NCBI GenBank assembly: GCA_043803105.1 | Contig: JAZDKJ010000013.1 | Coordinates: 1-64,000, forward strand | Length of the DNA: 64,000 bases | From: Candidatus Woesearchaeota archaeon | GTDB lineage: Archaea; Nanobdellota; Nanobdellia; Woesearchaeales; JAZDKJ01 | Reading direction: 5' to 3' | Shown here: piece by piece, positions 22,756 to 48,987 of the stretch | Layout of the letters: each line of letters begins with the position of its first letter | Numbering within the stretch: the stretch's first letter is position 1 | The notes under the pieces: generated by a model | Database searches by the model: none | The model's input: only the letters and a program-made list of their open reading frames with translations | Told to the model about the DNA's origin: nothing | Program-made: the position numbers and the translations under genes

Positions 22756-23372
22756 AATATAGACTAATATCAGTTCTGGCAATCATTTTCTTTGCACAGA
22801 CAGCCATGGCAGAGATTAACATCAACCTCATATCTTACAATGCAGAAACCCAGGAAGCGAGAATACTCATAGCAAACACAGGACCTCAAGAGTACAGTGA
22901 CATAGTCTTTTCTATAGACAACAGCGTGACAGAATTCAAGGGAAGCCTGCTCAAGCCAGGCACAGGATTCACTATACCAAAAAAGGTCCAGGCAGGAGTT
23001 CACCAACTGAAGGTCATAACAAAAGAAGGCGCAGTATTCGAGCAGCCAACGCTATTCGCAAAATCGACAGTACCTGATAACTTCATAGTCAAGGGAAAGC
23101 AAATACAAACACAACAGGCAGAAGAAGAGGCAAAGACCCATTGGGTACTGCCTACAATAATCATAACAATAATAGTGGGAATCCTGACCTTTATCATTAT
23201 AAAATATCATGACAGACTGCTGATGATGCTCAAGAAACCGAGGCAGCAGGAAAGAACATCCCGCCAACCGGTAATGCAGCCGGCAGCAAGGTTATCTGGC
23301 TCAAGAGTGGAACTGGTACGCCAGCAAAAGAAGGCAGACAGGGAAAAATTTTTTGAAAGCTTCAAGAGGTAG
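22752..23372 (+). CDS. Membrane-anchored small Ig-like protein B1
   Basis: Start MKYRLIS in ATGA overlap with the A1 stop; signal peptide, beta domain, TM helix and basic tail. Confidence 0.8.
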   Translation: MKYRLISVLAIIFFAQTAMAEININLISYNAETQEARILIANTGPQEYSDIVFSIDNSVTEFKGSLLKPGTGFTIPKKVQAGVHQLKVITKEGAVFEQPTLFAKSTVPDNFIVKGKQIQTQQAEEEAKTHWVLPTIIITIIVGILTFIIIKYHDRLLMMLKKPRQQERTSRQPVMQPAARLSGSRVELVRQQKKADREKFFESFKR

Positions 23373-23377
23373 GAATC

Positions 23378-25747: not shown

Positions 25748-26883
25748 GAAAAGCGCAGATACAGTCACAGCTATTTGTGTACATCATAGGAGCCATACTC
25801 GTCATATTGTTAGTCATCTTCTCATTCAAAGTGCTAGGCTCCCTACAAAAGAAGCAGGGCGAAGCGCTACTGATTGGACTTGACGAAAAGCTCAAGTCTG
25901 CAGTAGACCTTGGCACGGGAGACTTTGGCGCAGTGAGCAAACTCGACTTGAAGCTTCCGGATGACATCAATAAAGTCTGTTTTGTTGACATAAACAAGTC
26001 AGAAGAGCTAATGCAAGGAGTGCTCACCAGCACATACCCAGAGATAAAACACAGCATAAGCTCTGGAGAAAGAAAGAACGTGTTCCTGATAACACAAAAC
26101 AAGGTCAGCCACAGCCTCTACTCAGGAAACATATGCCTTTCAATACCTTACTACAAATGTGTCAACCCAAATGAGCATTACCTGAGAATATTGATCCAAG
26201 GCAGGAATAAGTGCATAGATATTATAAAACCCATAAGGGACATCATGATATATAACTCGTTGCAAGAGTCAAAATATTCAACTAATCCAATCTTGTTCAT
26301 CAAAGACTCTTCAAGCTGGAGTGAAAGACAGAAAATACTGGAATACCTACCCATCTCGATGTCAAACGATAAGAAAGGCGGCATAGACACTCATCCATAT
26401 TATGTGTATTACACAGATGCACTAGGCAGTTTTGATGACACAGCCTTATCACTCATAGCGGCAAAGCATCCTGGCTCACAAGAATACAGGTTCTTTGGGG
26501 GAATACCAATCAGCATAAACAACCCAATGGCAAAATCAGAAGAGATAACTCTCAACAACTACTTTAGTTATTGGAGCAAACTGGTGGATGTGGTAGTGAT
26601 TGATTACAACAACCAGGACGCAGCATTGATCAGCTCACTTTTCGCGTCATACCTGATTGCCCCGGTCATTTTCATAGGAGAGAGCAACTATGCCCAATAC
26701 GCAAACTACATTGACGGAAAAAGAGTATACCTTGTAGACGAGATAGACAGCAATGCAGCAATGGAATCAATCAGAACAAATGCAATCGAGATAGAGGCAT
26801 ACGACAGCAATTATCTTAGGATAGACGAGAAAATCAACCCATATAAACAGTTGGTATCAAACATTATAACATACAATCCATAA
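25744..26883 (+). CDS. Class III signal peptide (pilin-like) protein D1
   Basis: MRKA|QIQSQLFVYIIGAILV. The C-terminal DAALISSLFASYLIAPVIF resembles cell-wall-binding repeat 2. Confidence 0.8.
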   Translation: MRKAQIQSQLFVYIIGAILVILLVIFSFKVLGSLQKKQGEALLIGLDEKLKSAVDLGTGDFGAVSKLDLKLPDDINKVCFVDINKSEELMQGVLTSTYPEIKHSISSGERKNVFLITQNKVSHSLYSGNICLSIPYYKCVNPNEHYLRILIQGRNKCIDIIKPIRDIMIYNSLQESKYSTNPILFIKDSSSWSERQKILEYLPISMSNDKKGGIDTHPYYVYYTDALGSFDDTALSLIAAKHPGSQEYRFFGGIPISINNPMAKSEEITLNNYFSYWSKLVDVVVIDYNNQDAALISSLFASYLIAPVIFIGESNYAQYANYIDGKRVYLVDEIDSNAAMESIRTNAIEIEAYDSNYLRIDEKINPYKQLVSNIITYNP

Positions 26884-26898
26884 ACCAGAGGGATAAAA

Positions 26899-29800
26899 AT
26901 GCAACGGAACGATTATGGCAAGGTGGCGCTGTTCGTGCTGCTCTTTTTTGCCTCACTAAGCACAGCCAAGGCAACGTACTGCGTGTCTGGCACATCTTGT
27001 GCTGCGCACCCGATAGGTTATGTATGCTGCAACAGCCCGACCGCTACGCTGACGTGCGGCAGCAGTCCAAGGAATTGGGGGTCTCCGGGCGTGTGCCCAA
27101 AATCAATTTGCATTGCCGCAACCTGCTCAGGAGGCAGCCCGGTATGCGGTACAGCATATATAGCTCATGGGACGACAGATACTGGCTGCTCTGGGAATTA
27201 CAATGGATGTAATGGCTATGCATGCCATTGTAGCGGTACTGGTGCGTGTGAGGCGGCCTGCACAGATAATGATGGCAACATGAACCCTTATACGCGAGGG
27301 ACAATGGACGCTGCCCCCTCAGGCCCTGGAGGCGAAGCCACAGACTACTGCCAGACCACCCAGCAAGTGGTCGAGTATTACTGCCTTGACAGCGGAGCTG
27401 GCACAAGCACATTCGCCAGCTGCCCTACCAACTATTTTTGCACTACGGGTGCATGTACTTACTGTGCTGGATGCAATTACGGAGGAGCCTGTTATCCAGG
27501 CAACACAAATTCCTACTGCGGTTCAGGAGGGGCTCCTTGTTCAACTTGCGGTCAAGTGTGTTATCTTCAGGCGTGTTGTACTCCTAATTGTGTTGGCAAG
27601 TGCGGCGGGGCTAGTAATGGTTGTGGCGGGACCTGTACTGCTGCTTGTCCTTCCCCTCAGGTTTGTAATGTCCAGACTTGCTGCACTCCTACCACTTGCG
27701 CTTCTTTGGGGAAGAGCTGTGGTTCATGGCCTAACGGTTGCGGTACCAACTTGAATTGCGGTACTTGTAATGACTATAATTTTTGTACAAGTGATGTCTG
27801 CTCTGCTGCCGGTGCTTGCATTTATACTGCCTATTGTACTGGTTCTGATACAAGCTGTGGCTGCTCTTCGTGTACGAACTGTAATCTTAATGATGCGTAT
27901 GTTGGCGGCTATTTTTGCTCTTCAGGTGATGTTTATCAAGTTTATAGGAATTATTATTGCTCTGGGACTTCGTGTACTTACTCAGATTCGTCTTTGTTGA
28001 TTCAGGATTGCGGTGCAAATGTTTGTTGCAATGGTGGTTGTTGTGCTGCTGGCCAGATTTGTCAGGCAGCAGGCTGTATTGCAGCTTACAATGCTCAGTT
28101 TGTTTCACAAAGTGTTTCTCCGGTTATGACTATTGGCCAACAATATTCTGTTTCTGTAACAATGAAGAATACTGGAGGGAATACATGGACTCAAAGCAAC
28201 AATTATAAGCTTGGATCACAGAATCCTCAAGATAACAGTAGGTGGAGTGTAGCCCGTGCTTTACTGGGTGCAAGTGATGCAATCGCCACAGGCCAATCCA
28301 AGGCTTTTAGTTTTACTGTCACCGCTCCTGCAACTGCAGGAACATATAATTTCCAGTGGCGAATGCTTCAGGAAGCAGTTACCTGGTTTGGGGACTTTTC
28401 GACGAATTTAGCAGTTTGCGTAGCTTCTACTTGCGCTTCTCTTGGAAAGCAATGCAGTTCATGGCCTGACGGTTGCAGCGGAACATTGAATTGTGGAGCC
28501 TGCATTAATGGTTATAGCTGCTCTTCCGGAAGCTGTGTATGCCCTGGTTGCCTTTCTGGCGGATATTGTTATGCCGGTAACACAAGTACCCTGTGCGGCG
28601 CTGGCGGCATAGCCTGCCAGGCCTGCAGCTCTGGCCAAGTTTGTTCTGGCGGCACTTGTGTTGTAGGCACTGAGGTCTGTTCAACTGCTGGCGACGAGAA
28701 CAACAATGGCGAGTGCGATTATGACAGCTCAACATGTTCTCATGGTGATATTGCCTGCCCAGTTGGGATAACAGCAATAAGTGTCACCAATGCAAACCCA
28801 ATTGCCGGCTCAAGCATAAATGTTTCCTGTACTTCAACCAGAACTGGTGTTAACAGCATAATTGCCAGCATCGATGGTGTTGGAACATGCAGCTGGGGAA
28901 AATGGAACGGCAATGTTGCCATTTTCAGCTGTCCTGTAGGTGCTGCTTATGGGACCAGGACTGCGAGATGCTGGGTGAACACAGCAAAGTCCTACCAAAC
29001 TGGCACTAATATGACCTACTCAATTAATGTATTAGCATCAACCTGTTCTGTTTACGCTTCTTCATCTAGCTGTATTGATGATACAAGATGCAACTGGTGT
29101 TCTAGCTGTTCTGGCACCAAGTACACTGGCGGTTCTGACAGGTGCGTTGAAGCCGGAAGTTGCCCTGCTCCATATTGTTGGACCGGCCAGTGCGGCGCAG
29201 AGTGTGACCCAACCAATTATGTGTGCAATGACAAGGATAGCTGTTCAAGCTGCCCGGGATGCAGTTATAGTGATTATTATTGTACTGCCAATTGTGGTTG
29301 TGATTTCACGTCGAATAATCCTGACAGCTTACAGGCATATTGCGCAGGCTGCTCGAGGAATTGGGTGGCAGGCGGAGAGGGTACTGTGTTTGGTGAATAT
29401 AATCCGGGCACAATAACAGCTTGCTGCGGAGATGACTCGGGCGAGTACTATCAGCCCACTGATGCGGGAACACAGAATATTTGCTGTAATGCTGCAAGCG
29501 ATTGTGCAATAAACAGTCTCTGTGTTGCGAGCGGGTCTGCTGATACAACAAACAATTACTGCTGCTACTCAAACTCTAATGCAGACGGCACAAAAGAAAC
29601 ATGCGCCACTTATAGCAACGGAGCAACGTGCTTTTCCAATGGTGTCAATACCTGCAACGCACTATCAGGATGGGCATGCAGCTACACCACAACAACCTGC
29701 ACAAGCAGTGCAGAATGCACCGGGCTATGCGGAAGCAAGAAGTGCGTTTTCACGGACAGCGGCATATACAATTATACAGAACCCACTACAGAAACAAACT

Positions 29801-31029
29801 GCGCAGATGGGCATGACAATAACTGCAATAACGAGAGGGACTATGACGGAAAAGACACAATGGGCAGTTATGTATCAAAGGGAGATGCATCATGTCCAGT
29901 AGCTGTAAACAACATAGCAACTGTAAGCTCAGTATGCCCGAGCGCACACTTAAACGTCAACTGCACATTAAGCGTTGCAGGAGTAGGGAGCACTACTGCT
30001 TTTATAGGAGCAAGCCAATGCAGCCTGACAAAATGGGTAGGCAGTGTTGCGGTCTTTGATTGTGTTGCGCCCAGCAGTGCAGGCAGCGTTACAGCACAAT
30101 GCAGCATTGACACAACAAAGTCCTACCAAACAGGAACAGATAAAACAGCAACAGTAAGTGTGGGAGGAACAAACTGCTGCTCAGCATACTCAAACCAGCC
30201 GGGCTGCGAGGCTGACAGCGTTTGCGAGTGGTGTGTCTCATGTGATGCAATGACCAGATTCAGCGGGAACCCAAGCGCAGCATGCGTGAGAAAAGGAAGC
30301 TGCACATATTCGTGCAAGAAAGACTCATGCAGTGCAAAATGTGACGGAAGCAACGGCTGCAATCCACTTTCAACATGCGACCTGGCAACTTGCGAGTGCG
30401 TTTGCGGAGACTCTGATGGCGGCAAGAACTACAATGTAGCAGGCACGACATCACTAGGCTTGACTACAAATGTGGATAGCTGCACAGGAAGCACCCTGAC
30501 TGAATACTACTGCGAAGCGAACGCAATAAAGTCAGAGAGTTACAATTGCCTGGCAGGATGGGGCTGCGTTAGTGGAGCCTGTGTGCCACCGCAGTGCACT
30601 GCAGGAAGCTGCTGTGACCAATCAACGAGGCCATACAAATTCTATCCTGCAGGCTACATGTGCGACCCGCAAAAAGTATGCAGTTCAAACCAGCTCTGCC
30701 AGTACACTGTATGTGATAGTACGGGCAACTGCAACCAATTGATTGGATGCAGCAACTGCGCAGGACAAACCAAGGGACAATGCGGAATAGCAACGGGTGC
30801 GTGCATAACCAAGGCAGGGGATGATGATTGCGCATTCACGGACAGCGCATCAAAATGCGTTGATTGCAGCACATACTGTGACAGCTCATTTACCTGCACG
30901 CTCCTGCCTTCTCAGGGAGGCTGCAACTACAGGTATGATGAATGCGTGGCAGCAGCAAAGCCTGGGGGCAGCCCTAGCGACCCTGTTGAATGCCCATGTC
31001 ATAACTACTGGACGGGGTGTTTACCATGA
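26899..31029 (+). CDS. Giant secreted Cys-rich protein A2 (1376 aa), paralog of A1
   Basis: Signal peptide, NBR1-like Ig domain (AQFVSQSV...FQWRML...WFG), an internal duplicated domain ending KSYQTGT, and a C-terminus shared with A1. Confidence 0.85.
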   Translation: MQRNDYGKVALFVLLFFASLSTAKATYCVSGTSCAAHPIGYVCCNSPTATLTCGSSPRNWGSPGVCPKSICIAATCSGGSPVCGTAYIAHGTTDTGCSGNYNGCNGYACHCSGTGACEAACTDNDGNMNPYTRGTMDAAPSGPGGEATDYCQTTQQVVEYYCLDSGAGTSTFASCPTNYFCTTGACTYCAGCNYGGACYPGNTNSYCGSGGAPCSTCGQVCYLQACCTPNCVGKCGGASNGCGGTCTAACPSPQVCNVQTCCTPTTCASLGKSCGSWPNGCGTNLNCGTCNDYNFCTSDVCSAAGACIYTAYCTGSDTSCGCSSCTNCNLNDAYVGGYFCSSGDVYQVYRNYYCSGTSCTYSDSSLLIQDCGANVCCNGGCCAAGQICQAAGCIAAYNAQFVSQSVSPVMTIGQQYSVSVTMKNTGGNTWTQSNNYKLGSQNPQDNSRWSVARALLGASDAIATGQSKAFSFTVTAPATAGTYNFQWRMLQEAVTWFGDFSTNLAVCVASTCASLGKQCSSWPDGCSGTLNCGACINGYSCSSGSCVCPGCLSGGYCYAGNTSTLCGAGGIACQACSSGQVCSGGTCVVGTEVCSTAGDENNNGECDYDSSTCSHGDIACPVGITAISVTNANPIAGSSINVSCTSTRTGVNSIIASIDGVGTCSWGKWNGNVAIFSCPVGAAYGTRTARCWVNTAKSYQTGTNMTYSINVLASTCSVYASSSSCIDDTRCNWCSSCSGTKYTGGSDRCVEAGSCPAPYCWTGQCGAECDPTNYVCNDKDSCSSCPGCSYSDYYCTANCGCDFTSNNPDSLQAYCAGCSRNWVAGGEGTVFGEYNPGTITACCGDDSGEYYQPTDAGTQNICCNAASDCAINSLCVASGSADTTNNYCCYSNSNADGTKETCATYSNGATCFSNGVNTCNALSGWACSYTTTTCTSSAECTGLCGSKKCVFTDSGIYNYTEPTTETNCADGHDNNCNNERDYDGKDTMGSYVSKGDASCPVAVNNIATVSSVCPSAHLNVNCTLSVAGVGSTTAFIGASQCSLTKWVGSVAVFDCVAPSSAGSVTAQCSIDTTKSYQTGTDKTATVSVGGTNCCSAYSNQPGCEADSVCEWCVSCDAMTRFSGNPSAACVRKGSCTYSCKKDSCSAKCDGSNGCNPLSTCDLATCECVCGDSDGGKNYNVAGTTSLGLTTNVDSCTGSTLTEYYCEANAIKSESYNCLAGWGCVSGACVPPQCTAGSCCDQSTRPYKFYPAGYMCDPQKVCSSNQLCQYTVCDSTGNCNQLIGCSNCAGQTKGQCGIATGACITKAGDDDCAFTDSASKCVDCSTYCDSSFTCTLLPSQGGCNYRYDECVAAAKPGGSPSDPVECPCHNYWTGCLP

Positions 31030-31523
31030 AAACCTGGATGACAGCAATCCTGTTTTTGCTCCTTGTACCGATATCGACAGCTGAGCTTAACGTGCGCCTG
31101 ATTTCATACAACGCAGACACTACAGAATCGAGGATACTGCTTCAGAACACAGGGCAGACAGACTACACCAACCTCAAAATTTTAATAGACAACATGACAA
31201 CTGACCTGAGTGGTGGGGTATTAAAGTCCAAGACAGGATGGCTGCTGGCAAAACTCGTGCAACCAGGAACACACCAAATAAGGATTGTGGCCGGAGAGCA
31301 AGTAATCATTGAGCAACAGCTAATATTCCCAGAAGCGGCAAAGCACATAGAGAGCTATGTTGCGCCGGTAGTAACGGGAACAAGCGAAAAAAAGGACAAT
31401 TCATGGATTTATGTTGTAATCGGGGCTGCAATCACAATAGCGGTATTGCTAATGATATACGGGCTTAAAAGAGCACACAAAGCGCCGAAAGGCAGGTATC
31501 CTGATCAATTACGCAGAAGATGA
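31026..31523 (+). CDS. Membrane-anchored small Ig-like protein B2
   Basis: ATGA overlap with A2. AELNVRLISYNADTTESRILLQNTG aligns with B1 AEININLISYNAETQEARILIANTG; one TM helix. Confidence 0.8.
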   Translation: MKTWMTAILFLLLVPISTAELNVRLISYNADTTESRILLQNTGQTDYTNLKILIDNMTTDLSGGVLKSKTGWLLAKLVQPGTHQIRIVAGEQVIIEQQLIFPEAAKHIESYVAPVVTGTSEKKDNSWIYVVIGAAITIAVLLMIYGLKRAHKAPKGRYPDQLRRR

Positions 31524-34500
31524 ATAAGGTCCTGATTGTGTTTCTTTTTTTGGCAATTCTGGTTCCGATAGCGGCAAGAGCGTCATGCGAGGGAAAGGTA
31601 TGCTGCAACAATGAGTGCAACCAACAAGCTAGGTGTTGTGCACCAGGCACTTCAGAATGGAATGGGCTTGCAGTATGCGGCTGCAACAGCAAGCTGAACG
31701 TGCAGTGCGACACTATGAACCTGGGAGACTGCGTTCAATGCATATGCACAAGCCAAAAAGACTGCAGCTGGTCAATAAAAGACTGCGGCAAATGCGCAAG
31801 CTGCCAATATGATGACATCGCAAACCCCGGATACAGCAGATGTGTCAGTAGCGCCTGCGTATCCTCACAAGACAGATGCCTGGAAATAGGCGAGATAGAC
31901 GATAACGAATGCTGCTATGGAAATGACCTTTTAAGCAACACCAAGCCGACAAACTGCGCATACAGTGAAGGGGCAGTGCCGTTGAAGTACAGACTAGAAC
32001 ACTGCACAGGACAGAAATGTGGCGGCACTGGCTGGGAATGCTACAATGATGTGCGGGACACGGGCTGCACAAGGTGCCTGGACTGCGACAACAACCAGGC
32101 ATGCGACCCAAACATAGACAGCGACAATGACGGCTTTATCGACAGCTGCGATAATTTTGACAATGATGCATGCTCTGTAGTCACCCAAGGCGACAATTGT
32201 GACAATAAGTTCAGCATGGGGGGAATCTACGGCAAGGGCTGCGGTAAGAGCAATGATCCCGGCTCAAGTTATTGCACCACATGCGACACTGACTCTGACG
32301 GAATAAAAGACTGCCAGGACAAATGCCCAGAGACAACAGACGGGTGCAAGAACTCCATAGGAGTGGTACTCACAAGCGGGGACCCAAGACTAGGCTGCCC
32401 AAAGAGCTGCGGCGGCCAATGCCAGAATGACCAAGGGTGCATCTGCGAGAGCTGCGACCAATGCGGTTCTGGAGGGGGCTGCAGCTTTCAAGAGTGCACA
32501 AACCAATGCGGGGGCCAGCCATGCTACTTTATCTCGCAGACCATGGGCTCGGATAAATGCGACTTCTGCACAACCAACCCTCCACAATCATGTGAAGATT
32601 ACAACAATGCGGAAACATGCAACCTGCATCCATGCGGGAACTTCAAATGTGCATGGACTGAGTGCCGATGGTATGACATTGGGTGCAAGAACTGCAGGCT
32701 GGACACGGATGATGACGGAAAGGCGGACATAACAGACAATTGCCCAAATGATTACAATCCCGGCCAACAAGACCAAGACGGTGACGGAAAAGGAGATGCA
32801 TGCGAATACTGCAAATACGAAAAAAACATGTTTACACCGGAAACGGAGATAGAAGAAAAATGCACGGACACGAAAGACAATGATTGCGACAGCACAGGCT
32901 GGAAAAGCAGCGATGTCGGGAACAGCGAAGACTGCCTTGATGCAGACTGCACGCAGGTCAAAGGATGCCCAGGAGGAAGCTGGCCAAGGGTATGCAAAGA
33001 GGGAGACGATTGGGTCTCGGAAGACCAAAAAACCGTATGCGACGAGGGAGTTCCAGTACAATGCAGCGGCCGAATTCCCTGTCAAAGAAGGTGGGTAAGG
33101 AATTCAGTGTTTTTCTGCAACGAAACGCATTGGATCAATAAGACACAATGCGAGATAATGGGCAGGTGCAACAACGGCTATCATTTTTATCACGGAGGCA
33201 GAAAGGTCTGCAACCTTAACACAGGACAACCGGAAGAAACATTCTGCGGAGACGGCCTAATAACCCAAGGAGAGCAATGCGACGGCAAGAATTGGGGCTC
33301 GATAACAGGATGCACAAGCTTCACAAGCTTTACTGGAGGAAACCTTGAATGCGATGCAGGCTGCACATTTAGCACCACACACTGCACAGGGGGCGACGGA
33401 ACATGCGGGGACGGAGAAGTCCAGCCAGGAGAGGAATGCGAGACCAATGTAGGATTAAGCGATTGCAAAAGCCTTGACACATTTGATCCTGGACAATTAA
33501 GCTGCCACAATTGCAAGTATGACACTACCGAATGCACCAAGGGCGGACAAGGGTACTGCGGAAACGCGGAACTGGACGGCGGCGAGCAATGCGACCCGAG
33601 CAGCGGAATAGAACCACCAGGATGCACAAGGTTTGACAATTTCAACGGTGGAACAACAACATGCACAGAGTGCATGGTGGATGTGGGTGGGTGCAGTGGC
33701 GGAACAAGCGGCACCTGCGGCAACAATAGGGTAAACACGGGAGAGCAATGCGATGGGACAGACTGGGGGCACATAACAGACTGCAAAGACTTCAGGTTCC
33801 TAGGTGGAGTATTAACCTGTTCAAATGACTGCAGGTTTGACACATCAGCCTGCATAGGAGTTGGGAGTTATTGCGGCGACGGATTCATTGACCCTGGGGA
33901 AGACTGCGACGGGACCAATTGGGGGCATAGCATCAATGGATGCAATGACGTGAACAGCAGGTTCACGGGAGGAACGCTCGGTTGCGGGAAAGACTGCCAC
34001 TTTGACACAAACAAATGCTTTGCTCCCGGACAAGGCATCTGCGGGGACAACCAAATCAACGGGGGAGAGGAGTGCGACGGCACCAACCTCAACTGGAAAA
34101 CATGTGTGTCATTCGGATTCCTAGAGAGCACCAACCTAAAGTGCAAAGAATGTAAGTTTGACACGAGCGAGTGTACTTCAAACCAAGCGTATGACCCAGA
34201 TAGCTCAGCACAACTCTGCGAAGAGCTTGTACCAGGGCAACAGGGAACATGTGATGTGCAGGGTGAGTACGGATGCTGGATTACAGACGGGATGGGAGCA
34301 AACAGCAAATGCTGCGGAGATGACTCCACAGCAGATGATTGGATGAACAAGACAGGATTATCAGCATGTTCAGAAGGGGGTTACTGCCTAGACGCTGACT
34401 GCTCTGAACTGCTTTGCAAAAATCGGATAATGGGCACTGGCACAAACTGCGCTCATGAACTCACAAAATGCTGGAGCGAAACAGACAAGGCATGCTGCGG

Positions 34501-34645
34501 AGATGATATTCAAGAGAGCTGGAGCTATGAGACAAATCAGGCACTAAACCAGTTATTGGTGGCTCAAACCTGCTACGAAGGCAAATGGTATGACAGGAAC
34601 CAAGGCATCATAACATATTACGGCCTATCAACAATAACGCAATGA
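31520..34645 (+). CDS. Secreted Cys-rich protein C2, paralog of C1 with expanded repeats
   Basis: TSP3 repeats, 6 CG(D/N)...E.C(D/E) repeats, and N- and C-termini shared with C1. Confidence 0.85.
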   Translation: MNKVLIVFLFLAILVPIAARASCEGKVCCNNECNQQARCCAPGTSEWNGLAVCGCNSKLNVQCDTMNLGDCVQCICTSQKDCSWSIKDCGKCASCQYDDIANPGYSRCVSSACVSSQDRCLEIGEIDDNECCYGNDLLSNTKPTNCAYSEGAVPLKYRLEHCTGQKCGGTGWECYNDVRDTGCTRCLDCDNNQACDPNIDSDNDGFIDSCDNFDNDACSVVTQGDNCDNKFSMGGIYGKGCGKSNDPGSSYCTTCDTDSDGIKDCQDKCPETTDGCKNSIGVVLTSGDPRLGCPKSCGGQCQNDQGCICESCDQCGSGGGCSFQECTNQCGGQPCYFISQTMGSDKCDFCTTNPPQSCEDYNNAETCNLHPCGNFKCAWTECRWYDIGCKNCRLDTDDDGKADITDNCPNDYNPGQQDQDGDGKGDACEYCKYEKNMFTPETEIEEKCTDTKDNDCDSTGWKSSDVGNSEDCLDADCTQVKGCPGGSWPRVCKEGDDWVSEDQKTVCDEGVPVQCSGRIPCQRRWVRNSVFFCNETHWINKTQCEIMGRCNNGYHFYHGGRKVCNLNTGQPEETFCGDGLITQGEQCDGKNWGSITGCTSFTSFTGGNLECDAGCTFSTTHCTGGDGTCGDGEVQPGEECETNVGLSDCKSLDTFDPGQLSCHNCKYDTTECTKGGQGYCGNAELDGGEQCDPSSGIEPPGCTRFDNFNGGTTTCTECMVDVGGCSGGTSGTCGNNRVNTGEQCDGTDWGHITDCKDFRFLGGVLTCSNDCRFDTSACIGVGSYCGDGFIDPGEDCDGTNWGHSINGCNDVNSRFTGGTLGCGKDCHFDTNKCFAPGQGICGDNQINGGEECDGTNLNWKTCVSFGFLESTNLKCKECKFDTSECTSNQAYDPDSSAQLCEELVPGQQGTCDVQGEYGCWITDGMGANSKCCGDDSTADDWMNKTGLSACSEGGYCLDADCSELLCKNRIMGTGTNCAHELTKCWSETDKACCGDDIQESWSYETNQALNQLLVAQTCYEGKWYDRNQGIITYYGLSTITQ

Positions 34646-42380: not shown

Positions 42381-43733
42381 ATGGGCATGAAAAAAACGCT
42401 ATTTGGCACTGATGGTATGAGAGGGATAGCAAATATACACCCCATGACTCCAGAGGTTGTGGTGCGGCTAGGAAAGGCAATAGTTGAAGCGCTGAAAAAT
42501 GGCACAAGACCAAAAATACTGATAGGAAAAGACACAAGATTAAGCGGCTATATGCTTGAGTCTGCACTCACAACAGGAATCTGTTCAATGGGAGGGGATG
42601 TGCTACTTGTCGGACCAATGCCTACACCAGCAATTGCGCACCTCACAAGGTCTTTTGCAGCTGACGCAGGAGTAGTCATCTCTGCATCACACAATCCGTG
42701 GGAGCACAACGGAATCAAGATTTTCTCAAGCAAGGGAATAAAACTTCCTGATGATATTGAATTAAGACTGGAACAACTGATGATAAAAGACGCAAGAAAT
42801 GAGCATGTGCAAGGAATTGCTATAGGCAAAGCAAAAAGGATAGACGACGCGAAAGGCCGCTACATAGAGTTTGCCAAGGCAGCCATAGACAATTTCCCCC
42901 TGCAAGGGCTAAAGGTTGTGCTTGACTGCGCAAACGGAGCAGCTTATGACATAACACCGCACATACTCCAGGAACTTGGGGCAGAGGTAATAATAATGTT
43001 CAACGAGCCAAACGGAACAAACATCAACAAGGAGTGCGGCTCACTGCATCCTGAGGTAATGCAACAAGCGGTGCTCAAACACAAAGCAGACCTTGGCATA
43101 GCACTTGACGGTGATGCTGACAGGGTCATAATGGCTGACGAAAAAGGAAACCTTGTGGACGGAGACCACCTGATGGCAATAATAGCGCTAGACCTCAAGG
43201 AAAAGAAGCAGCTAAAAAAGGATACGGTTGTAGGCACAGTGATGACAAACAAGGGACTAGAGCTGTACCTGAAGAAACAGGGAATAAGCCTGGTCAGGAC
43301 GAATGTAGGAGACCCTTACATAGTTGAGGAGATGCTTAAAAACGGCTACAATTTCGGGGGAGAACAATCAGGGCACATAATATGTTTTGACCATAACAGC
43401 ACACCTGATGCTACAATCACAAGCCTGTACATAATGAAAATAATGAAAGAAAAAGGGAAGAAACTGTCTGAACTCGGAACACTTTTCAAGTCAATGCCGC
43501 AGGTGCTCCTTAACAGCACGGTAAGAGAGAAGAGGGAGCTTGACAAGATGCCAAATGTAGTTAATACTATCAAGTCAGTTGAAAATGAGCTTGGAGAGGC
43601 AGGAAGGGTGCTTGTAAGGTATTCTGGGACAGAAAACAAGGTAAGGGTCATGATAGAAGGAGAAAATATGCAGAAGATAGAAGCGTACGCACAAGACATC
43701 ATGACAACGATACGAAAGGAGCTGGGAGATTGA
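42381..43733 (+). CDS. glmM: Phosphoglucosamine mutase
   Basis: FGTDGMRG, ISASHNP, DGDADR, GGEQSGH and RYSGTE. Confidence 0.95.
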   Translation: MGMKKTLFGTDGMRGIANIHPMTPEVVVRLGKAIVEALKNGTRPKILIGKDTRLSGYMLESALTTGICSMGGDVLLVGPMPTPAIAHLTRSFAADAGVVISASHNPWEHNGIKIFSSKGIKLPDDIELRLEQLMIKDARNEHVQGIAIGKAKRIDDAKGRYIEFAKAAIDNFPLQGLKVVLDCANGAAYDITPHILQELGAEVIIMFNEPNGTNINKECGSLHPEVMQQAVLKHKADLGIALDGDADRVIMADEKGNLVDGDHLMAIIALDLKEKKQLKKDTVVGTVMTNKGLELYLKKQGISLVRTNVGDPYIVEEMLKNGYNFGGEQSGHIICFDHNSTPDATITSLYIMKIMKEKGKKLSELGTLFKSMPQVLLNSTVREKRELDKMPNVVNTIKSVENELGEAGRVLVRYSGTENKVRVMIEGENMQKIEAYAQDIMTTIRKELGD

Positions 43734-44914
43734 AGGCTGTAATACTTTGCGCAGGCAAGTCAACAAGGACATATCCATTTACAATCTCAAAACCAAAGGC
43801 ATTGCTTCCGATCCTAGACAAGACCTTAATTGAGGTCAGCATTGAGAGCCTGAAGGGAATTGCTGAGGAGGTCATAATTGTAGTAGGATGTTTGAAAGAA
43901 CAAATAATTGAACACCTGGGGAGCACATACCAAGGAATAAAGATAACATATGTTGAACAAAAAGAGCAGCTGGGGACAGGCCATGCGCTCATGCAAGCCA
44001 GGAGCCAACTGACTGGAAAATTTTTGGTGCTGAACGGAGACGACATATACTCACCAAAAGATATCCTAAACTGTGCAAAGCATGACAGATGCCTGCTTGG
44101 CAAAGAGGTGGAGGACCCGGAAAAATGGGGAATCCTTCTCACTGAAGGTAAAGCGCTCAAAGGAATCCAAGAAAAACCTACAGAACCGTTATCAAACATT
44201 GGCAACACAGGCTTGTACGTTCTAGACAAGAACATTTTCCCATATCTGGAAAAAACAGGAAAGAGCGAGAGAGGGGAAATAGAAATAACATCAGCCATCA
44301 GCGAAATGTGCAAAGAGCAAACATACATGGTTGAAAAAATCCAAGATTACTGGTTACCAGTAAGCTATCCATGGCAACTGCTTGAGGCAAACGCATTTTT
44401 TCTAGAAAAGATAAGCCAAAGCAACATCAAGGGCATAGTCGAAGCGCATGTAACAATGAGAGGGGTTGTTGTGCTAAGAGAAAAAAGCATAATCAAATCA
44501 GGATGTTACTTGGAAGGGCCTGTATGGATAGGCAAAGACTGTGTAGTGGGCCCGAATGCATACCTGAGAAAAGACACCATACTCCTAGACAATGTGAGAA
44601 CAAGGTCAGAGATAGTAGACTCACTTATCATGAAAGGAACAACAGCAAAGCACCACAGCTATATAGGGCACTCAATCGTTGGCGAGAACTGCAACATAGG
44701 AGCAGGAACGATCACATCAGACTACAGACACGATGGAGCTACCAACAAAACTATAATCCAAGGAAAAAAAGTTGACAGCAACAGGAGGAAACTTGGTGCG
44801 TTCATAGGTGATGGTGTGCATACTGGGATTAACACAAGCATTTATCCCGGAAGGAAAATATGGCCAGGAAAGACAACTGTTCCAGGGGAAATAGTCAAAG
44901 AAGACATAATGTAA
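43730..44914 (+). CDS. glmU: Archaeal bifunctional sugar-1-phosphate nucleotidyltransferase/acetyltransferase
   Basis: LCAGKSTRTYP...PK, EQLGTG and C-terminal hexapeptide repeats (SYIGHS, NIGAGT). Confidence 0.88.
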   Translation: MKAVILCAGKSTRTYPFTISKPKALLPILDKTLIEVSIESLKGIAEEVIIVVGCLKEQIIEHLGSTYQGIKITYVEQKEQLGTGHALMQARSQLTGKFLVLNGDDIYSPKDILNCAKHDRCLLGKEVEDPEKWGILLTEGKALKGIQEKPTEPLSNIGNTGLYVLDKNIFPYLEKTGKSERGEIEITSAISEMCKEQTYMVEKIQDYWLPVSYPWQLLEANAFFLEKISQSNIKGIVEAHVTMRGVVVLREKSIIKSGCYLEGPVWIGKDCVVGPNAYLRKDTILLDNVRTRSEIVDSLIMKGTTAKHHSYIGHSIVGENCNIGAGTITSDYRHDGATNKTIIQGKKVDSNRRKLGAFIGDGVHTGINTSIYPGRKIWPGKTTVPGEIVKEDIM

Positions 44915-44915
44915 A

Positions 44916-46085
44916 ATGTGCGGAATCATAGCATACAAAGGAAATGAGCAGGCAAGCAAGATAATTCTCGAAGGGCTGCAGAATCTTGAATACAGGGGAT
45001 ATGACTCAGTGGGAATTGCAACAATAGATGCTGGCAAATTACAGGTACAAAAAGAAATTGGGAAAGTGCAAGATACGCAGCTCGATTTTGAGAGCATGAA
45101 GGGAACGATGGGAATGGGCCATAAAAGGTGGGCTAAGATAAAGTACTTAAGTAAACAAAACATTCCAATTACCCAAATGAGTAAACCATTTTTTCGGATG
45201 GTTGATTTAGCACTCGAAAATCCACAGTTATATTACGTTGAGATAGACGAGAATTTACGACACTTGATTGGATTGAAAATACTGAGAGTTAGTTCAATCA
45301 TTGATAAGACCATGATTTCAAGAAAAAGCTTGTACAGAATAATGAAAAAATCCGGCCACTATTGCCGATTGGACACATTGTTGAAACTTGGTAAATCTAT
45401 CAATGTTAGCGGAAAGACTCTACATATTCATATAAAAAGTGTAAAGACCAAGAATAGTTTTCCAATAACAAATCAGAAATTGAGCCTTAATGAAGGCTTT
45501 GCTCGCATTTTGGGTCATATCATTGGTGATGGAGGTATTCATATTGTTGTGAAAGAGAACAAGTACCGTATTTTTTATGTTAATAATGAAAAATTTTTGC
45601 TGAATTCATTCAAGACTGATGTGGTCAACTGCTTTGGAGAAACTAAGATATATAGCCGGCAAAGATTAGATCATGGAGACGAAGTTTGGCTACCATCTAC
45701 AATTGGTTCACTTATATACAGATTGCTGGATTTCAAAGCCGGTAATAAACAAGTTCCATCCATTGTCATGAGATGCAAGAATACAAAAGTTGTTGCAGCA
45801 TTCCTTCAGGCATTGTATGATGATGAAGGTTTTTTGTATCCGTCAAAGAAAATGATAGTGATATCACAGGTGGATCTACAATTAATCGAACAAATTAAGG
45901 AACTTGTATCCCGGCTTCAAATCAAAAGCAACAAAATCTTGGAACACAATTCGAAAAGTAGAAGTCTTATGTACTATTTTACGATAACGGGCAAACAAGA
46001 TATTCAGCGATTTAAGAACAAGATTGGATTCTTGCACCCTATCAAATCCAAGAAATTGTCCCTGCTAATGAAATCTTACAAGTGA
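44916..46085 (+). mobile_element. GlmS N-terminal 73 aa fused in frame to an HTH plus LAGLIDADG homing endonuclease
   Basis: MCGII...LEYRGYDS...GMGHKRWA, then ARILGHIIGDG and AFLQALYDDEG. No intein splicing termini; ends in a stop codon. Confidence 0.85.
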
Positions 46086-46090
46086 AAAAA

Positions 46091-47857
46091 ATGTGTGGTA
46101 TTGTAGCGTATCGTGGAATTAAACAAGCCAGTCCTTTACTATTGAAATGCCTTAGGCATCTAGAATATCGCGGGTATGACTCAGTTGGAATGGCAGTATT
46201 GAGCCATCAGGGAATAGAAGTCCGCAAAGAGGTGGGGAAGATTGATGAAGCTGACAAGCGAGCGCATTTTGAAGAATTGAAAGGAAATCTAGGAATGGCG
46301 CATACTCGTTGGAGCACCCATGGTGGTGTAACTCAAAAGAATGCGCATCCACACTTATCAGAGGATGGAAAGATTGCAGTTGTTCACAATGGGATTATCG
46401 AAAACTACCAATATCTAAGAGAATTCTTGAAGTCCAAGGGAATAGTATGTATGACTGACACTGATACAGAAGTTATACCTCATCTCATACAATACCATAT
46501 GCTGAATGGCCAGGATTTTAGAAAAGCATTTGTAACAAGTTTAAGAGAACTCGAGGGAAGCTTTGCTGTTGTTGCGATTCATAGTGACCATAATTTTATT
46601 CTTACGGCTCGTCGTGGCTCACCTCTTGTATTGGGTTTTAAAGATAATGAATTGTTCGCGGCATCTGACGTTCCGGCATTTCTGGAGTATACAAACAAAG
46701 TGATTTATCTTGAGGATGATGAATATGCTATTATGGCCAAGAGATTGGATGTTTTCAGCTTAAAAAATGATGAGTTACAAACCAAAGAACCTGTAACTAT
46801 CACATGGTCCATAGAGCAGGCAAGAAAGGGTGAGTATGCTCACTTTATGCTAAAAGAGATTACAGAACAGAAAGAGACAATAAGAAAAGCAGCAGAACAA
46901 GACCCAAAGCTCATGGCACAAGTCAGCCAGATGCTCAAAGATGCATTTGGAATTTTCTTTGTGGGCTGCGGGACATCGTACCATGCCTGCGTGTCAGCAT
47001 CATACCAATTCGCAGAAATAGCTAAGAAGCATGTAAACGTTATACTGGCATCAGAATTCAGGAATTATGAGAGCTTTCTGACAGACAAGACAGTGATGGT
47101 AGCACTTTCGCAATCTGGAGAGACAGCGGACACAATAGAAGCAATAAAGACAGCAAAAAAGCATGGGACCAAGATAATAACTATAGTGAATGTAATGGGG
47201 TCAACAATAACAAGGCTCTCAGACGTGAACATAATGACGCATTCGGGACCTGAAATATGCGTACTTTCGACCAAAAGCTACACAGCACAGCTCGCGATAC
47301 TCCTAAGCTTGGCATACAATGTGGCAGGAAGAGAGGCTGAAGGAAAAAAAGTGATTACAAAAGCTTCACTTGAGGTTGAAGGGCTGATCAAGGAGAACTT
47401 GACGCGGCTCAAGGCATTGGCAAAGCAATTGAAAGGCCAGCATGACATATTCCTAATAGGAAGAGACCTTGCATATCCCAGCGCTCTTGAAGGGGCACTC
47501 AAAATAAAGGAAGTCAGCTATGTGCACGCAGAAGGGTTTGCAGGAGGAGAGCTAAAGCACGGCACAATAGCGCTAATAGAGCAAGGCATACCAGCAATAA
47601 TACTTGCGACTGAACACACAAGAAAGGAAATTGTATCAAACGCAATGGAAATCAAGGCAAGGGGAGGATACATAATAGGGATAGACTCAGAGCCAAACGA
47701 TGTCTACGACTATCACATTAAAGTGGCTGAAGCAGGAATGGCAAACCCTATCTTGATGATAATACCTTTGCAAATACTTGCATACTACCTTGCACTAGAG
47801 CGGGGCTGCGACCCTGACAAGCCCAGAAACCTTGCAAAAAGCGTTACAGTAAAATAA
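46091..47857 (+). CDS. glmS: Glutamine-fructose-6-phosphate transaminase
   Basis: MCGIV (Cys1), HTRWSTHG, HNGIIEN, SQSGET, LKHG and PRNLAKSVTV. The Cys1 requirement puts the start at 46091. Confidence 0.95.
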   Translation: MCGIVAYRGIKQASPLLLKCLRHLEYRGYDSVGMAVLSHQGIEVRKEVGKIDEADKRAHFEELKGNLGMAHTRWSTHGGVTQKNAHPHLSEDGKIAVVHNGIIENYQYLREFLKSKGIVCMTDTDTEVIPHLIQYHMLNGQDFRKAFVTSLRELEGSFAVVAIHSDHNFILTARRGSPLVLGFKDNELFAASDVPAFLEYTNKVIYLEDDEYAIMAKRLDVFSLKNDELQTKEPVTITWSIEQARKGEYAHFMLKEITEQKETIRKAAEQDPKLMAQVSQMLKDAFGIFFVGCGTSYHACVSASYQFAEIAKKHVNVILASEFRNYESFLTDKTVMVALSQSGETADTIEAIKTAKKHGTKIITIVNVMGSTITRLSDVNIMTHSGPEICVLSTKSYTAQLAILLSLAYNVAGREAEGKKVITKASLEVEGLIKENLTRLKALAKQLKGQHDIFLIGRDLAYPSALEGALKIKEVSYVHAEGFAGGELKHGTIALIEQGIPAIILATEHTRKEIVSNAMEIKARGGYIIGIDSEPNDVYDYHIKVAEAGMANPILMIIPLQILAYYLALERGCDPDKPRNLAKSVTVK

Positions 47858-47892
47858 AGGATTATAAAGTCCACTTGCTTCTGATTGGCAAA

Positions 47893-48987
47893 ATGAAAAA
47901 GAACCTCAGCGCAATAGAACTCAAGCAGATTGTTGCAGAATTACAAGAGCTTCTGGGCTCGAAAGTGTCAAAGATTTACCAGCCCATAAAGGAAGAGGTG
48001 TACATACAAGCACACAGCGCATCACAAGGAAAGAAAATTTTGAGAATATTTGTGCCAAGGTTCATGCACCTGACAGAACACAAGCTAGCAAGCCCGCAAA
48101 GCCCTCATGGGTTTTGCCAATCATTGAGGAAATGGATCTCAAACACGAGAATAGCGAAGATAAAACAAACTCGAATGGAGAGAATAGTAGAGATAACCTT
48201 TGAGTCAAATGCTGGCAATTACATACTGATCATCGAATTGTTTGCGAGGGGAAACATAATCCTGTGCAGGGAAGACATGACAATAATATCGGCGCTTGAG
48301 ACACAAAAATTCAAGGACAGGGAAATCAGGCCAAAAGCAATCTACACTGCACCAAAAGCAGCATTCGACCTGACAAAATTCAAGATAGATGACATCAAGG
48401 AAGCGCTGGAGAAGACAAAATCAGACAATATAGTGAAGTTCCTAGCGATAGATTTAGGCTTGGGCGGGCTTTATGCAGAAGAGATAATCGAGAACTGTAA
48501 TATAAACAAGAACAAAACAAGTCTTGAGCCGAAGGAAATGGAGCAAGTATACAAAGGAATACTCAAACTTCTTGAAAGGAAACCGGAGCCTATGATTGTT
48601 ACAAAGGAAGGGTTTAGCGATGTTGTACCGTTTGAACTAGCTGCTTATAGAGACTATGAAAAGAAAGGATTCAAGAGCTTCAACGAAGCACTAGATGAAT
48701 ACAATTACAGTAATCTCACTGAGCAAAAAAGCAAAGAAGCCTCGCCTGAAAGAGAGAGATTGGAAAAAATCCTTAGAGCACAAGAAGAGGTCATTAAGCA
48801 AGGAGAGGCAGAAATAGCAGAGAACCAGAGAAAAGGTGAGATGATATACGAGCATTACCAAGAGATAAAAGACATTCTTGAAAGAGTCAACAGCGAGCTG
48901 AAAAAATTGACAAAAGAAGAGATTATCGAGAAGCACAAAATAAAAGAGCTGGATTTGAAGGATAAAACTATTACAGTAGAGCTCTAG
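47893..48987 (+). CDS. rqcH: NFACT/RqcH-like protein, N-terminal part only
   Basis: LRK, ERIVEITF, IELF..GNIIL, GGLYAEEI, FNEALDEY and coiled coil; ends before the NFACT-R domain. Confidence 0.8.
   Translation: MKKNLSAIELKQIVAELQELLGSKVSKIYQPIKEEVYIQAHSASQGKKILRIFVPRFMHLTEHKLASPQSPHGFCQSLRKWISNTRIAKIKQTRMERIVEITFESNAGNYILIIELFARGNIILCREDMTIISALETQKFKDREIRPKAIYTAPKAAFDLTKFKIDDIKEALEKTKSDNIVKFLAIDLGLGGLYAEEIIENCNINKNKTSLEPKEMEQVYKGILKLLERKPEPMIVTKEGFSDVVPFELAAYRDYEKKGFKSFNEALDEYNYSNLTEQKSKEASPERERLEKILRAQEEVIKQGEAEIAENQRKGEMIYEHYQEIKDILERVNSELKKLTKEEIIEKHKIKELDLKDKTITVEL

Follow-up and report, generated by a model that had tools for sequence, protein, structure and literature searches.

Introduction

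Homing endonucleases in essential genes are, to our knowledge, usually said to survive only inside self-splicing introns or inteins. T-even phages harbour the free-standing GIY-YIG and HNH endonucleases seg and mob, which cut a nearby conserved gene in genomes lacking them and spread by double-strand-break repair, co-converting flanking markers, while site polymorphism protects their own genome. Here we analyse the glmS locus of a Candidatus Woesearchaeota archaeon (assembly GCA_043803105.1), which lies in positions 1 to 64,000 of the forward strand of contig JAZDKJ010000013.1; this whole stretch of 64,000 nucleotides (nt) is called the window below. In this locus an endonuclease gene is fused to an old 5' end of glmS and followed by a complete glmS with a 5' end of its own. 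On the evidence of sequence comparisons it is probably a free-standing LAGLIDADG homing element placed inside the glmS coding sequence, with no intron or intein, which duplicates the 5' exon of its host gene.

Two other described arrangements are close to this one. In fungal mitochondria, mORFs make "gene hybrids", as in atp6 of Allomyces macrogynus and in atp6, atp9, cox2 and nad3 of Glomus. There, an in-phase endonuclease open reading frame (ORF) brings a foreign 3' end of the gene and the native 3' end is left as a relic (Beaudet et al. 2013, PMC3630166, where the Allomyces case is cited). In "fractured genes", a free-standing homing endonuclease gene (HEG) lies between two gene halves carrying split inteins (Dassa et al. 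2009, PMC2677866). No earlier description of an arrangement like that of the window was found for archaea or for glmS in the literature covered, subscription journals and supplements lying outside that coverage.

Results

The glmS gene starts twice around an endonuclease ORF

In what follows, HEG stands for the helix-turn-helix (HTH) plus double-LAGLIDADG endonuclease part of ORF1, G000 for the window's own genome and G001 for a genome of the same genus. T3, A3 and C3 are the fractions of T, A and C at third codon positions. P0002 is the nearest HEG of the family. The locus is composed as follows.

44916 (ATG) to 46083-46085 (TGA), + strand: ORF1, 389 aa, the glmS stub fused in frame to the HEG
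44916-45134, + strand: old glmS 5' end (the stub), codons 1-73, MCGII...GHKRWA (BLASTP, TIGR01135)
45120-45134, + strand: left half of the putative target site, CAT AAA AGG TGG GCT
45135-45197, + strand: element-derived leader, from the junction to a conserved internal Met, KIKYLSKQNIPITQMSKPFFR (similarity to P0002)
45198-46085, + strand: endonuclease proper (Pfam LAGLIDADG_3)
about 45288-45398, + strand: HTH region
45507-45536, + strand: LAGLIDADG motif 1 (LGHIIGDGG)
45801-45830, + strand: LAGLIDADG motif 2 (FLQALYDDEG)
46083-46093, + strand: stop-restart junction, TGA, 5 nt and ATG of the new glmS (read from the sequence)
46091-47857, + strand: ORF2, complete glmS, 588 aa, GATase and two SIS domains (Pfam, TIGR01135)
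46091-46315, + strand: replacement glmS 5' end, codons 1-75 (T3 0.31)
46301-46324, + strand: full variant target-site copy CAT ACT CGT TGG AGC ACC CAT GGT (HTRWSTHG)
46316-46790, + strand: putative co-converted glutaminase-domain tract, codons 76 to about 233, of donor-type composition
46791-47857, + strand: native rest of glmS, comprising the last part of the glutaminase domain, the linker and both SIS domains (host-type codon usage)
42381-43733, + strand: glmM
43730-44914, + strand: glmU-like sugar-nucleotidyltransferase/acetyltransferase gene (Pfam NTP_transferase and Hexapep)

The stub and ORF2 are identical at 39/84 positions (BLASTP, E 2e-23), and TIGR01135 matches the stub with 82.8 bits over profile positions 1-75 and ORF2 with 664.9 bits, against a cut-off of 418. 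The stub begins MCGIIAYKG and ends GMGHKRWA. It is followed in frame by 316 residues of non-stub protein, the first of which resemble those after the junction in P0002 (KIKYLSKQNI in the window, RQKYISRQNI in P0002). The element proper comprises 45135-46315: the leader, the HTH-LAGLIDADG ORF, its stop codon and the second copy of glmS codons 1-75. To its left stands the last codon of the stub, codon 73 (...GHKRWA), and to its right Thr76 of the new copy, so that the first 73-75 codons of glmS occur twice. By its similarity to GlmS and its codon usage, the stub is a relic of the recipient's own glmS that now serves as in-frame leader of the endonuclease ORF.

A first-pass annotation, made from the letters of this DNA and a list of its ORFs, had claimed that glmS starts twice, that 73 stub codons up to GHKRWA (45134) run in frame into an HTH and two LAGLIDADG motifs, that a full glmS begins 5 nt after the stop, and that the second copy of the site reads AHTRWST in different codons. 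All of this was borne out, with the coordinates and frames given: BLASTP, TIGR01135 and Pfam agree on the composition of ORF1, the new gene starts at ATG 46091, and its site reads CAT ACT CGT TGG AGC ACC.

The locus belongs to an operon-like run on the + strand, formed by glmM, the glmU-like gene, ORF1, ORF2 and an NFACT-family gene (Pfam). The TAA of the glmU-like gene (44912-44914) ends 1 nt ahead of the old glmS ATG (44916), a spacing by which the old start would be translationally coupled to the glmU-like gene. The G000 genome (1.56 Mb, 13 contigs) holds a single glmS, a single stub and a single endonuclease of this kind. A second LAGLIDADG ORF of G000 (locus L002, contig C10, 1338-2027, - strand) resembles the HEG weakly, with 28% identity over residues 96-310 (E 9e-4).

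The arrangement recurs in a family of glmS-linked endonucleases

A search with the endonuclease part returned 42 proteins at E 2.6e-51 or better, with 39-100% identity. A glmS-type N-terminus, MCGI, is present in varying completeness in 17 of the 41 other homologues and in degenerate form, MCDI, in one more; the remaining ones start near MNILN, which aligns to Met95 of ORF1. At the loci of the close family (40-56% identity), a full glmS lies directly downstream in 10/10 cases from genome contigs and 8/8 from metagenome contigs. One of the latter is a duplicate (L075, of L046) and was dropped from all family counts; the 17 non-duplicates and the window make 18 loci. In 18/18, the HEG stop and the start of the full glmS are separated by -16 to +5 nt. 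Records of the family are labelled as metagenome-assembled genomes of Woesearchaeota, Nanoarchaeota or Nanoarchaeia, with some "uncultured Methanosarcinales" bins (DPANN-labelled assemblies and metagenomes).

The stub is more variable. An in-frame MCGI stub is found in 10 of the 16 evaluable loci (L045 and L076, in which a contig end cuts the HEG, were dropped from this count), while the other 6 are without one; in L038 and L069 remains of the junction, SH(I/T)RWAK, are still present out of frame. Wherever the stub end survives it reads GH(K/E/T/V)(R/G)WA, and TGGGCT followed by A stands at the junction in the window, L037, L039, L040, L071 and L072. Many stubs of relatives have lost most of their middle, for instance MCGITAYIGGGQMFEENSSFDHTLWA; the downstream glmS copy is always complete. 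The stubs of L040, L071 and L072 share one internal deletion and have a ratio of nonsynonymous to synonymous substitution rates (dN/dS) of about 0.15, so the leader seems to be under constraint. It had been suggested that the element borrows the host start for its own expression. This is plausible, but not obligatory, as 6/16 loci lack an in-frame stub and a start at Met95 is conserved.

The recurrence of the layout also bears on the possibility that the window merely contains an assembly artefact or a trivial tandem duplication, in which two glmS alleles of a mixed population and an unrelated HEG were joined. The assembly is in 13 contigs, a search for sequencing runs matching 44400-48000 listed none, and a chimera would show the same break in composition that is reported below. 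However, 17 further loci, independent of one another and cleared of duplicates, repeat in different assemblies the order of stub, HEG and abutting full glmS with its conserved junction, though not all have the stub, and the frames of the window are intact across both junctions. We give this explanation hardly any credence.

Relatives at a greater distance (23-36% identity), about 380 aa long, are free-standing and lie elsewhere than at glmS. Among them, seven LAGLIDADG proteins (L047, L048, L050, L058, L060, L064 and L066) are encoded so that they overlap, abut or lie within about 20 nt upstream of housekeeping genes, namely alaS (twice), tgtA, a gene for an Lhr-type helicase, lgt, carB and rpl44e. 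Local alignment (scores 16-34) revealed no stub-like N-terminus in the distant HEG relatives. These relatives may be intronless-homing elements at other targets.

Uninterrupted alleles and a signature in the target site

In G001, glmS follows glmU directly, with no insert and with the same junction between glmU stop and glmS start; this glmS is split over two contig ends which overlap by 141 identical nt. No HEG homologue was present in the relatives' glmS loci L005-L036. The empty alleles that the first-pass annotation had advised looking for do therefore exist, one of them within the genus.

Alleles with and without the HEG differ at the site. RWATHG is found in 18 of 23 HEG-free alleles vs none of the 18 HEG-linked copies, which read RWSTHG (7), RWATTG (5), RWATNG (2), RWATCG (2), RWSTTG (1) and RWGTHG (1). 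Thus residue 75 or 77 of the motif is changed in every replacement copy. The 23 HEG-free alleles do not include L020 and L026, whose site was unmatched by the pattern, nor L035 and L036, which duplicate L014 and L025. The replacement 5' end re-creates the whole site, so an active enzyme would select such changes, and the variant site fits a replacement that is predicted to be resistant to cleavage and hence immune. The five HEG-free exceptions read RWATTG, RWATSG, RWATCG and, twice, RWSTHG (L005, L007, L015, L017 and L019, from G002, G040, G039, G010 and G019); they could be former carriers that lost the element.

Near the same site, the glmS of G021 (L035/L014) carries about 57 extra aa in frame (LLFRANLTS...PPPEGGGF...), some 15 codons upstream of GHTRWA, in a locus with no Rfam match.

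No recognizable splicing parts were detected at the locus

A residue able to start or end protein splicing is absent from both ends of the insert: neither Cys nor Ser nor Thr stands at the junction, and the ORF does not finish with His-Asn (GHKRWA/KIKY ... MKSYK-stop). The first-pass annotation had likewise seen no Cys1 or His-Asn termini. Of the 18 Pfam families matched by the 35 family members scanned, none is an intein or Hint family. Rfam gave no match at E<=1 in 44500-48000, and a scan between the two junctions for a bulge-helix-bulge (BHB) found one strict BHB-like pairing vs 1.98 expected from 300 random position pairs. The proposed search for HINT domains thus came back empty in 35 members, with no Rfam intron and BHB pairing at chance.

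GlmS does have inteins in other lineages. Searches recovered 202 matches at E<=1e-20, and PF14890 and PF14528 are found in nearly all of the 120 listed. Their site is GH/C...HN/SRWATHG in 6/6 sequences read and in the consensus of 18 aligned metagenomic ones, the intein start reading GH/CLHP; it lies 12 nt (4 codons) upstream of the HEG junction. The first-pass annotation had placed the Methanocaldococcus jannaschii GlmS intein at the same GH/SRW site as the element. The site is right for metagenomic GlmS inteins and may be so for M. jannaschii, in which glmS was matched in the genome search, while no paper on that intein came up in the literature covered; the two positions are four codons apart, not identical. 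Such inteins (P0043-P0162) come from records labelled Micrarchaeota, Nitrososphaerota, Omnitrophica, Persephonella and Patescibacteria. The glmS genes linked to a HEG encode 571-610 aa where complete (one of the 18 is cut by a contig end), none long enough for an intein, so HEG and intein may exclude each other. Intein-bearing alleles keep RWATHG and HEG-linked alleles never do.

Archaeal rRNA introns carry LAGLIDADG genes. It could be argued from this, and from the presence of I-DmoI among the fold matches described below, that the element is a degenerate intron (BHB or group I) or a degenerate intein which still splices non-canonically, the old start and stub being the real exon 1. GlmS inteins with HTH and LAGLIDADG_3 inserts are common 12 nt upstream, and the HEG is collinear with the HEG insert of the intein: in hhalign, the HEG family and 18 intein-bearing GlmS sequences match with a probability of 98.7% (E 2.9e-16, 280 columns). 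This match, however, covers only the HEG insert (template columns 197-486 of 1106), and the junction nucleophile, the terminal His-Asn and any Hint or intein family are missing, as are an Rfam match and BHB pairing above chance. Moreover, the stubs found in relatives have lost so much from the interior of the glutaminase fold that they cannot be exon 1 of a functional GlmS, while the complete copy is always the downstream one. Non-canonical splicing is therefore very improbable. The claim of a splice-free mobile unit in glmS, with stub and replacement 5' end, is supported by the layout of 18/18 loci, the uninterrupted allele of the same genus and the failure to find splicing parts.

As to the kinship of the HEG, a profile search of 1.84 billion representatives yielded 2974 matches, of which the best 150 were inspected. 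The glmS-linked family comes first, then free-standing HEGs of about 380 aa (around 150 bits), and the best 150 also include inteins of other, longer proteins (100-126 bits); none of these 150 has the length of a GlmS intein. Both other free-standing HEGs and inteins of other proteins thus outscore GlmS inteins among the best 150 of the 2974, and the glmS intein was rejected as specific ancestor of the element. In the window protein, the match to the profile sets in at residue 95 of ORF1.

The endonuclease appears to be maintained

Pfam LAGLIDADG_3 is found in ORF1 (E 3e-13) and in 35/35 family members scanned. In 35 aligned members D132, G133, G134, D229 and D230 are invariant, and at position 231 the family sequences read have E or D; the metal-binding acidic residues of both LAGLIDADG motifs are accordingly kept in all 35. 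The HTH is visible at family level (HTH_26 in 16/35 members, HTH_3 in 7/35), the window protein itself matching LAGLIDADG_3 only.

An AlphaFold2 model of the window protein (pLDDT 89.4, pTM 0.86) has helices in the HTH region. The modelled fold of ORF1 is the pseudo-dimeric alpha-beta-beta-alpha-beta-beta-alpha of the single-chain, two-motif LAGLIDADG class. Its top matches in Foldseek are intein-borne HEG domains (TliVMA, E 2e-10, PI-PkoII and PI-PfuI) and I-DmoI (target TM-score 0.76); PI-PkoII is also matched in sequence (E 1.6e-5). For the HEG, dN/dS is 0.14 between L038 and L069 (at a synonymous divergence, dS, of 0.46) and 0.145 between L040 and L071. With its invariant acidic residues, a dN/dS of about 0.14 and a confident model of the HEG fold, the enzyme appears to be maintained. 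Site-specific cleavage of alleles that lack the gene is predicted, with indirect evidence from the junction conserved after TGGGCT and from the variant sites in all 18 linked copies.

A tract of foreign composition runs into the new glmS

T3 is 0.19 in the stub and 0.157-0.171 in the neighbouring + strand genes; it is 0.316 in the HEG and 0.364 in codons 1-250 of the new glmS, and 0.142 in codons 251-588. Taken by parts, the new glmS has T3 of 0.31 in codons 1-75, 0.40 in codons 76 to about 233, and 0.14 downstream. A codon-usage log-odds score (host + strand genes vs HEG), with a host reference of mean 0.16, standard deviation 0.10 and 5th percentile -0.03 over 259 segments, gives +0.14 for the stub and, for the new copy, -0.10 in codons 1-73, -0.11 in codons 74-250 and +0.21 in codons 251-588. 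The best single change-point of codon usage falls at codon 233 (nt 46790), and T3 drops from codon 251 (46841). These data indicate that 45135 to about 46790-46840 has a history unlike that of its surroundings.

The whole contig shows a very strong strand asymmetry, its + strand being A-rich at third positions whatever the orientation of the genes: in + strand genes A3 is close to 0.36 and T3 close to 0.16, and in - strand genes the two values are swapped. Of 209 other 250-codon + strand segments of the contig, 13 have T3 of 0.364 or higher, and only one other + strand ORF (26899-31026) reaches the T3 of the foreign tract. The first-pass annotation had described the first ~750 nt of the new glmS as T-rich and foreign, reverting to host style near 46850. 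The shift in T3 and codon usage is real; "host style" has to be qualified, since - strand genes are T3-rich by virtue of the asymmetry.

The extent of the tract was compared between loci by a composition gap: for each of the four bases the absolute difference in third-position frequency was taken between glmS codons 76-235 and codons 236 to the end, and the four differences were added up. This gap is 0.51 in the window; among 17 control glmS genes without a HEG it ranges over 0.03-0.25, and among 15 further loci with one over 0.06-0.31. The glmS of G001 is uniform in composition (T3 0.11-0.17). That the tract reaches as far as codon 233-250 or so sets this genome apart, and the constant unit is the HEG with glmS codons 1-75. 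The mobile unit had been thought to consist of the endonuclease and recoded glutaminase-domain DNA; the HEG with codons 1-75 can be kept as constant, and the tract beyond them is specific to this genome.

Two side observations touch on composition and on the tract boundary. The block 17719-34642 of the window is made of very large + strand ORFs of odd composition: ORF 26899-31026 has T3 of 0.33 and includes the six highest-T3 250-codon + strand segments outside the element, and ORFs 17719-22752, 23378-25744 and 31520-34642 have C3 of 0.35-0.39 and about 0.50 GC. In the glmS of G034 (L025/L036), an in-frame Lys/Asn-rich insert of about 47 aa lies near residue 232, at the boundary between glutaminase and isomerase, a position that coincides with the end of the foreign tract of the window.

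Mobility and the alternative of an old relic

On a 40-row tree of the GlmS C-domain, in which G000 and G001 are sisters (SH-like approximate likelihood ratio test, SH-aLRT, 99), the presence of the HEG is patchy, with at least nine state changes for 11 HEG-bearing rows. GlmS of the window was also compared with P0309, the closest relative of its N-domain, which is taken as the partner of P0002 because the two lie on contigs of equal length: residues 1-75 are 84% identical, residues 76-235 65% and residues 236-588 76%. In every comparison other than that with P0309, residues 1-75 are less conserved than the C-domain. The stub is 60.3% identical to residues 1-73 of G001 GlmS and 64% to the stub of P0002. 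Between L038 and L069, dS is 0.46 in the HEG and 0.44 in codons 1-75 vs 0.82-0.85 in the rest of glmS, and sliding identity has a modest peak of 0.94-0.97 at the HEG 3' end and glmS start vs 0.75-0.87 in the gene body. Distances of the HEG and of GlmS residues 1-75 are correlated, in a fragile and weak manner, in a Mantel test (rho 0.42, p 0.005, 10 loci, these being the window and genome-contig loci with L045 left out).

Several results weigh against the reading as a mobile element. The N-domain tree also joins G000 and G001 (75, unsupported), the end branch of G000 being 0.36 vs 0.16, and the C-domain clade of nine is not rejected when forced on the N-domain data (approximately unbiased, AU, test, p = 0.10). 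The first-pass annotation had expected separate trees of the two GlmS halves to disagree and had named congruent halves as a ground for dropping its reading; the incongruence is not significant, and that ground still stands. The N/C identity ratio between the G000 and G001 proteins (53/71) is like that of other pairs, from which the donor of the tract would be a fairly close relative, or the tract old. The Mantel link is gone (rho 0.18, p 0.22) once L046, one row of a close pair, is taken out. As to the site signature, HEG-bearing loci were found via the HEG and HEG-free ones via kinship, which makes two sampling frames with related rows. Finally, P0002/P0309 has the same arrangement of stub and new copy, with stubs 64% identical, so the insertion could be ancient and vertically inherited, predating the split between G000 and the host of P0002.

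These results lead to the main alternative, that the locus is an old, immobile relic or a domesticated protein: a single ancient insertion, vertically inherited, with another role, for example as HTH regulator or repair factor, the layout being a fossil. The two halves of GlmS are congruent within the power of the test. The whole arrangement is shared with P0002/P0309 at identities of 64% in the stub, 69% in the HEG and 76% in the C-domain. The dN/dS values of stub (~0.15 in L040/L071/L072) and HEG (~0.14) speak for selection on the protein, which alone is no proof of nuclease-driven mobility, and WhiA, a regulator derived from LAGLIDADG proteins, appears at rank 18 of the Foldseek matches. 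However, between 45135 and about 46790 the sequence has not taken on the strong local strand bias seen in the stub and the neighbouring genes, which argues for a recent arrival in this genome. The patchy presence of the HEG on the host-gene tree, the acidic metal-binding residues retained in both motifs of 35/35 aligned members and the site variants in every linked glmS copy, which are what an active enzyme would select, likewise speak against it. We regard a relic as unlikely, although it deserves more weight than either splicing or misassembly.

Discussion

A proposed mechanism

We hypothesize that the enzyme would cut HEG-free glmS alleles in the HTRWATHG motif (about CAY ACN MGN TGG GCN ACN CAY GG). 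The broken chromosome would then be repaired from an element-bearing allele, with the stub as left homology arm and the glmS sequence downstream of the site as right arm. Such repair would copy the endonuclease, the new 5' end and a variable stretch of downstream glmS, here presumably to about codon 233-250. The copy of the site within the new 5' end would be altered, here by the change of Ala75 to Ser (TGG AGC), so that the element's own chromosome should not be cut. The endonuclease may be translated from the old, glmU-coupled glmS start, from the conserved internal Met95, or from both, and the new glmS would be translated by restart at the endonuclease stop. The first allele of this kind may stem from a free-standing HEG parked upstream of glmS, a layout like that of the distant relatives, by one-sided repair followed by end-joining at the break.

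If this is so, the element carries a spare, cleavage-immune 5' end and takes over the translation start of its host gene. Translation of glmS would then depend on reading through the endonuclease ORF, by stop and restart, which would make the parasite hard to silence. The element would also compete with the glmS intein for one conserved motif, and the relatives located directly upstream of alaS, tgtA, lhr, carB and others in DPANN genomes may use the same strategy. It is tempting to go further and rank exon-duplicating homing with introns and inteins, as a third general means by which endonuclease genes live in essential cellular genes; this generalization is speculative, and we hold it to be rather doubtful.

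At glmS itself, the family would represent a splice-free solution in archaeal chromosomes, by which the front of the gene is duplicated and the gene restarted. At least 18 loci with the element at a single site are thereby available as a natural set, together with uninterrupted alleles, intein alleles 12 nt away and putative immune-site variants. With this set, the origin of the element, its competition with inteins, the extent of scrambling by co-conversion and the shielding of a parasite from silencing by translational coupling become open to test. The locus is also a trap for annotation: an "Xre regulator" or a hypothetical protein is easily read into the 389-aa ORF, and a truncated GlmS into the stub. 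Among the enzymes of the family there are candidates for new long-target nucleases, whose natural target is known, though predicted.

Comparison with known systems

The seg and mob endonucleases resemble the glmS element in mechanism: they too are intronless, non-intein HEGs, and their cutting of a nearby conserved gene, co-conversion of flanking markers and protection by site polymorphism are what is proposed for the glmS element. They differ in that they lie between genes, whereas the glmS element lies inside a coding sequence and is made harmless by duplication of the 5' end, and in being GIY-YIG or HNH instead of LAGLIDADG enzymes.

The GlmS intein shares with the element the host gene, the motif (12 nt apart), the endonuclease superfamily and the order of domains, and the fold class is that of the intein-borne PI-PkoII, PI-PfuI and TliVMA. 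In contrast to the intein, the element has no Hint domain or splice residues, the gene is restarted and not spliced, and the two are not nearest HEG lineages. Fractured genes (PMC2677866) offer another likeness: in environmental prokaryotes, a free-standing endonuclease gene is lodged in an essential gene, the alternative being a contiguous intein. There, however, the halves are joined by trans-splicing; in the glmS locus the gene after the HEG is complete, and no splicing is involved.

The closest parallel is with the fungal mORFs (PMC3630166). In both, a LAGLIDADG (in mORFs also GIY-YIG) endonuclease ORF is found inside a protein-coding gene without an intron, a foreign duplicate of a terminal portion of the gene replaces the native one, the native relic remains beside the ORF, and the ORF can be in phase; in both, the foreign portion has diverged further than the relic has from a close relative's gene. 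The differences make one the mirror image of the other. The glmS element duplicates and replaces the 5' end, and mORFs the 3' end. The relic is upstream and forms the leader of the endonuclease ORF in glmS, while in mORFs it is downstream and often untranscribed. In addition, glmS is re-started by stop-restart coupling, whereas the host gene of a mORF simply ends early, and the glmS element occupies archaeal chromosomes instead of organelles, being present in 18 loci, all at one site, in which the immune-site signature recurs. Since the nearest profile matches listed for the glmS element are free-standing HEGs of about 380 aa, and the loci fetched for such relatives come from DPANN-labelled records, its resemblance to mORFs is one of mechanism and not of membership.

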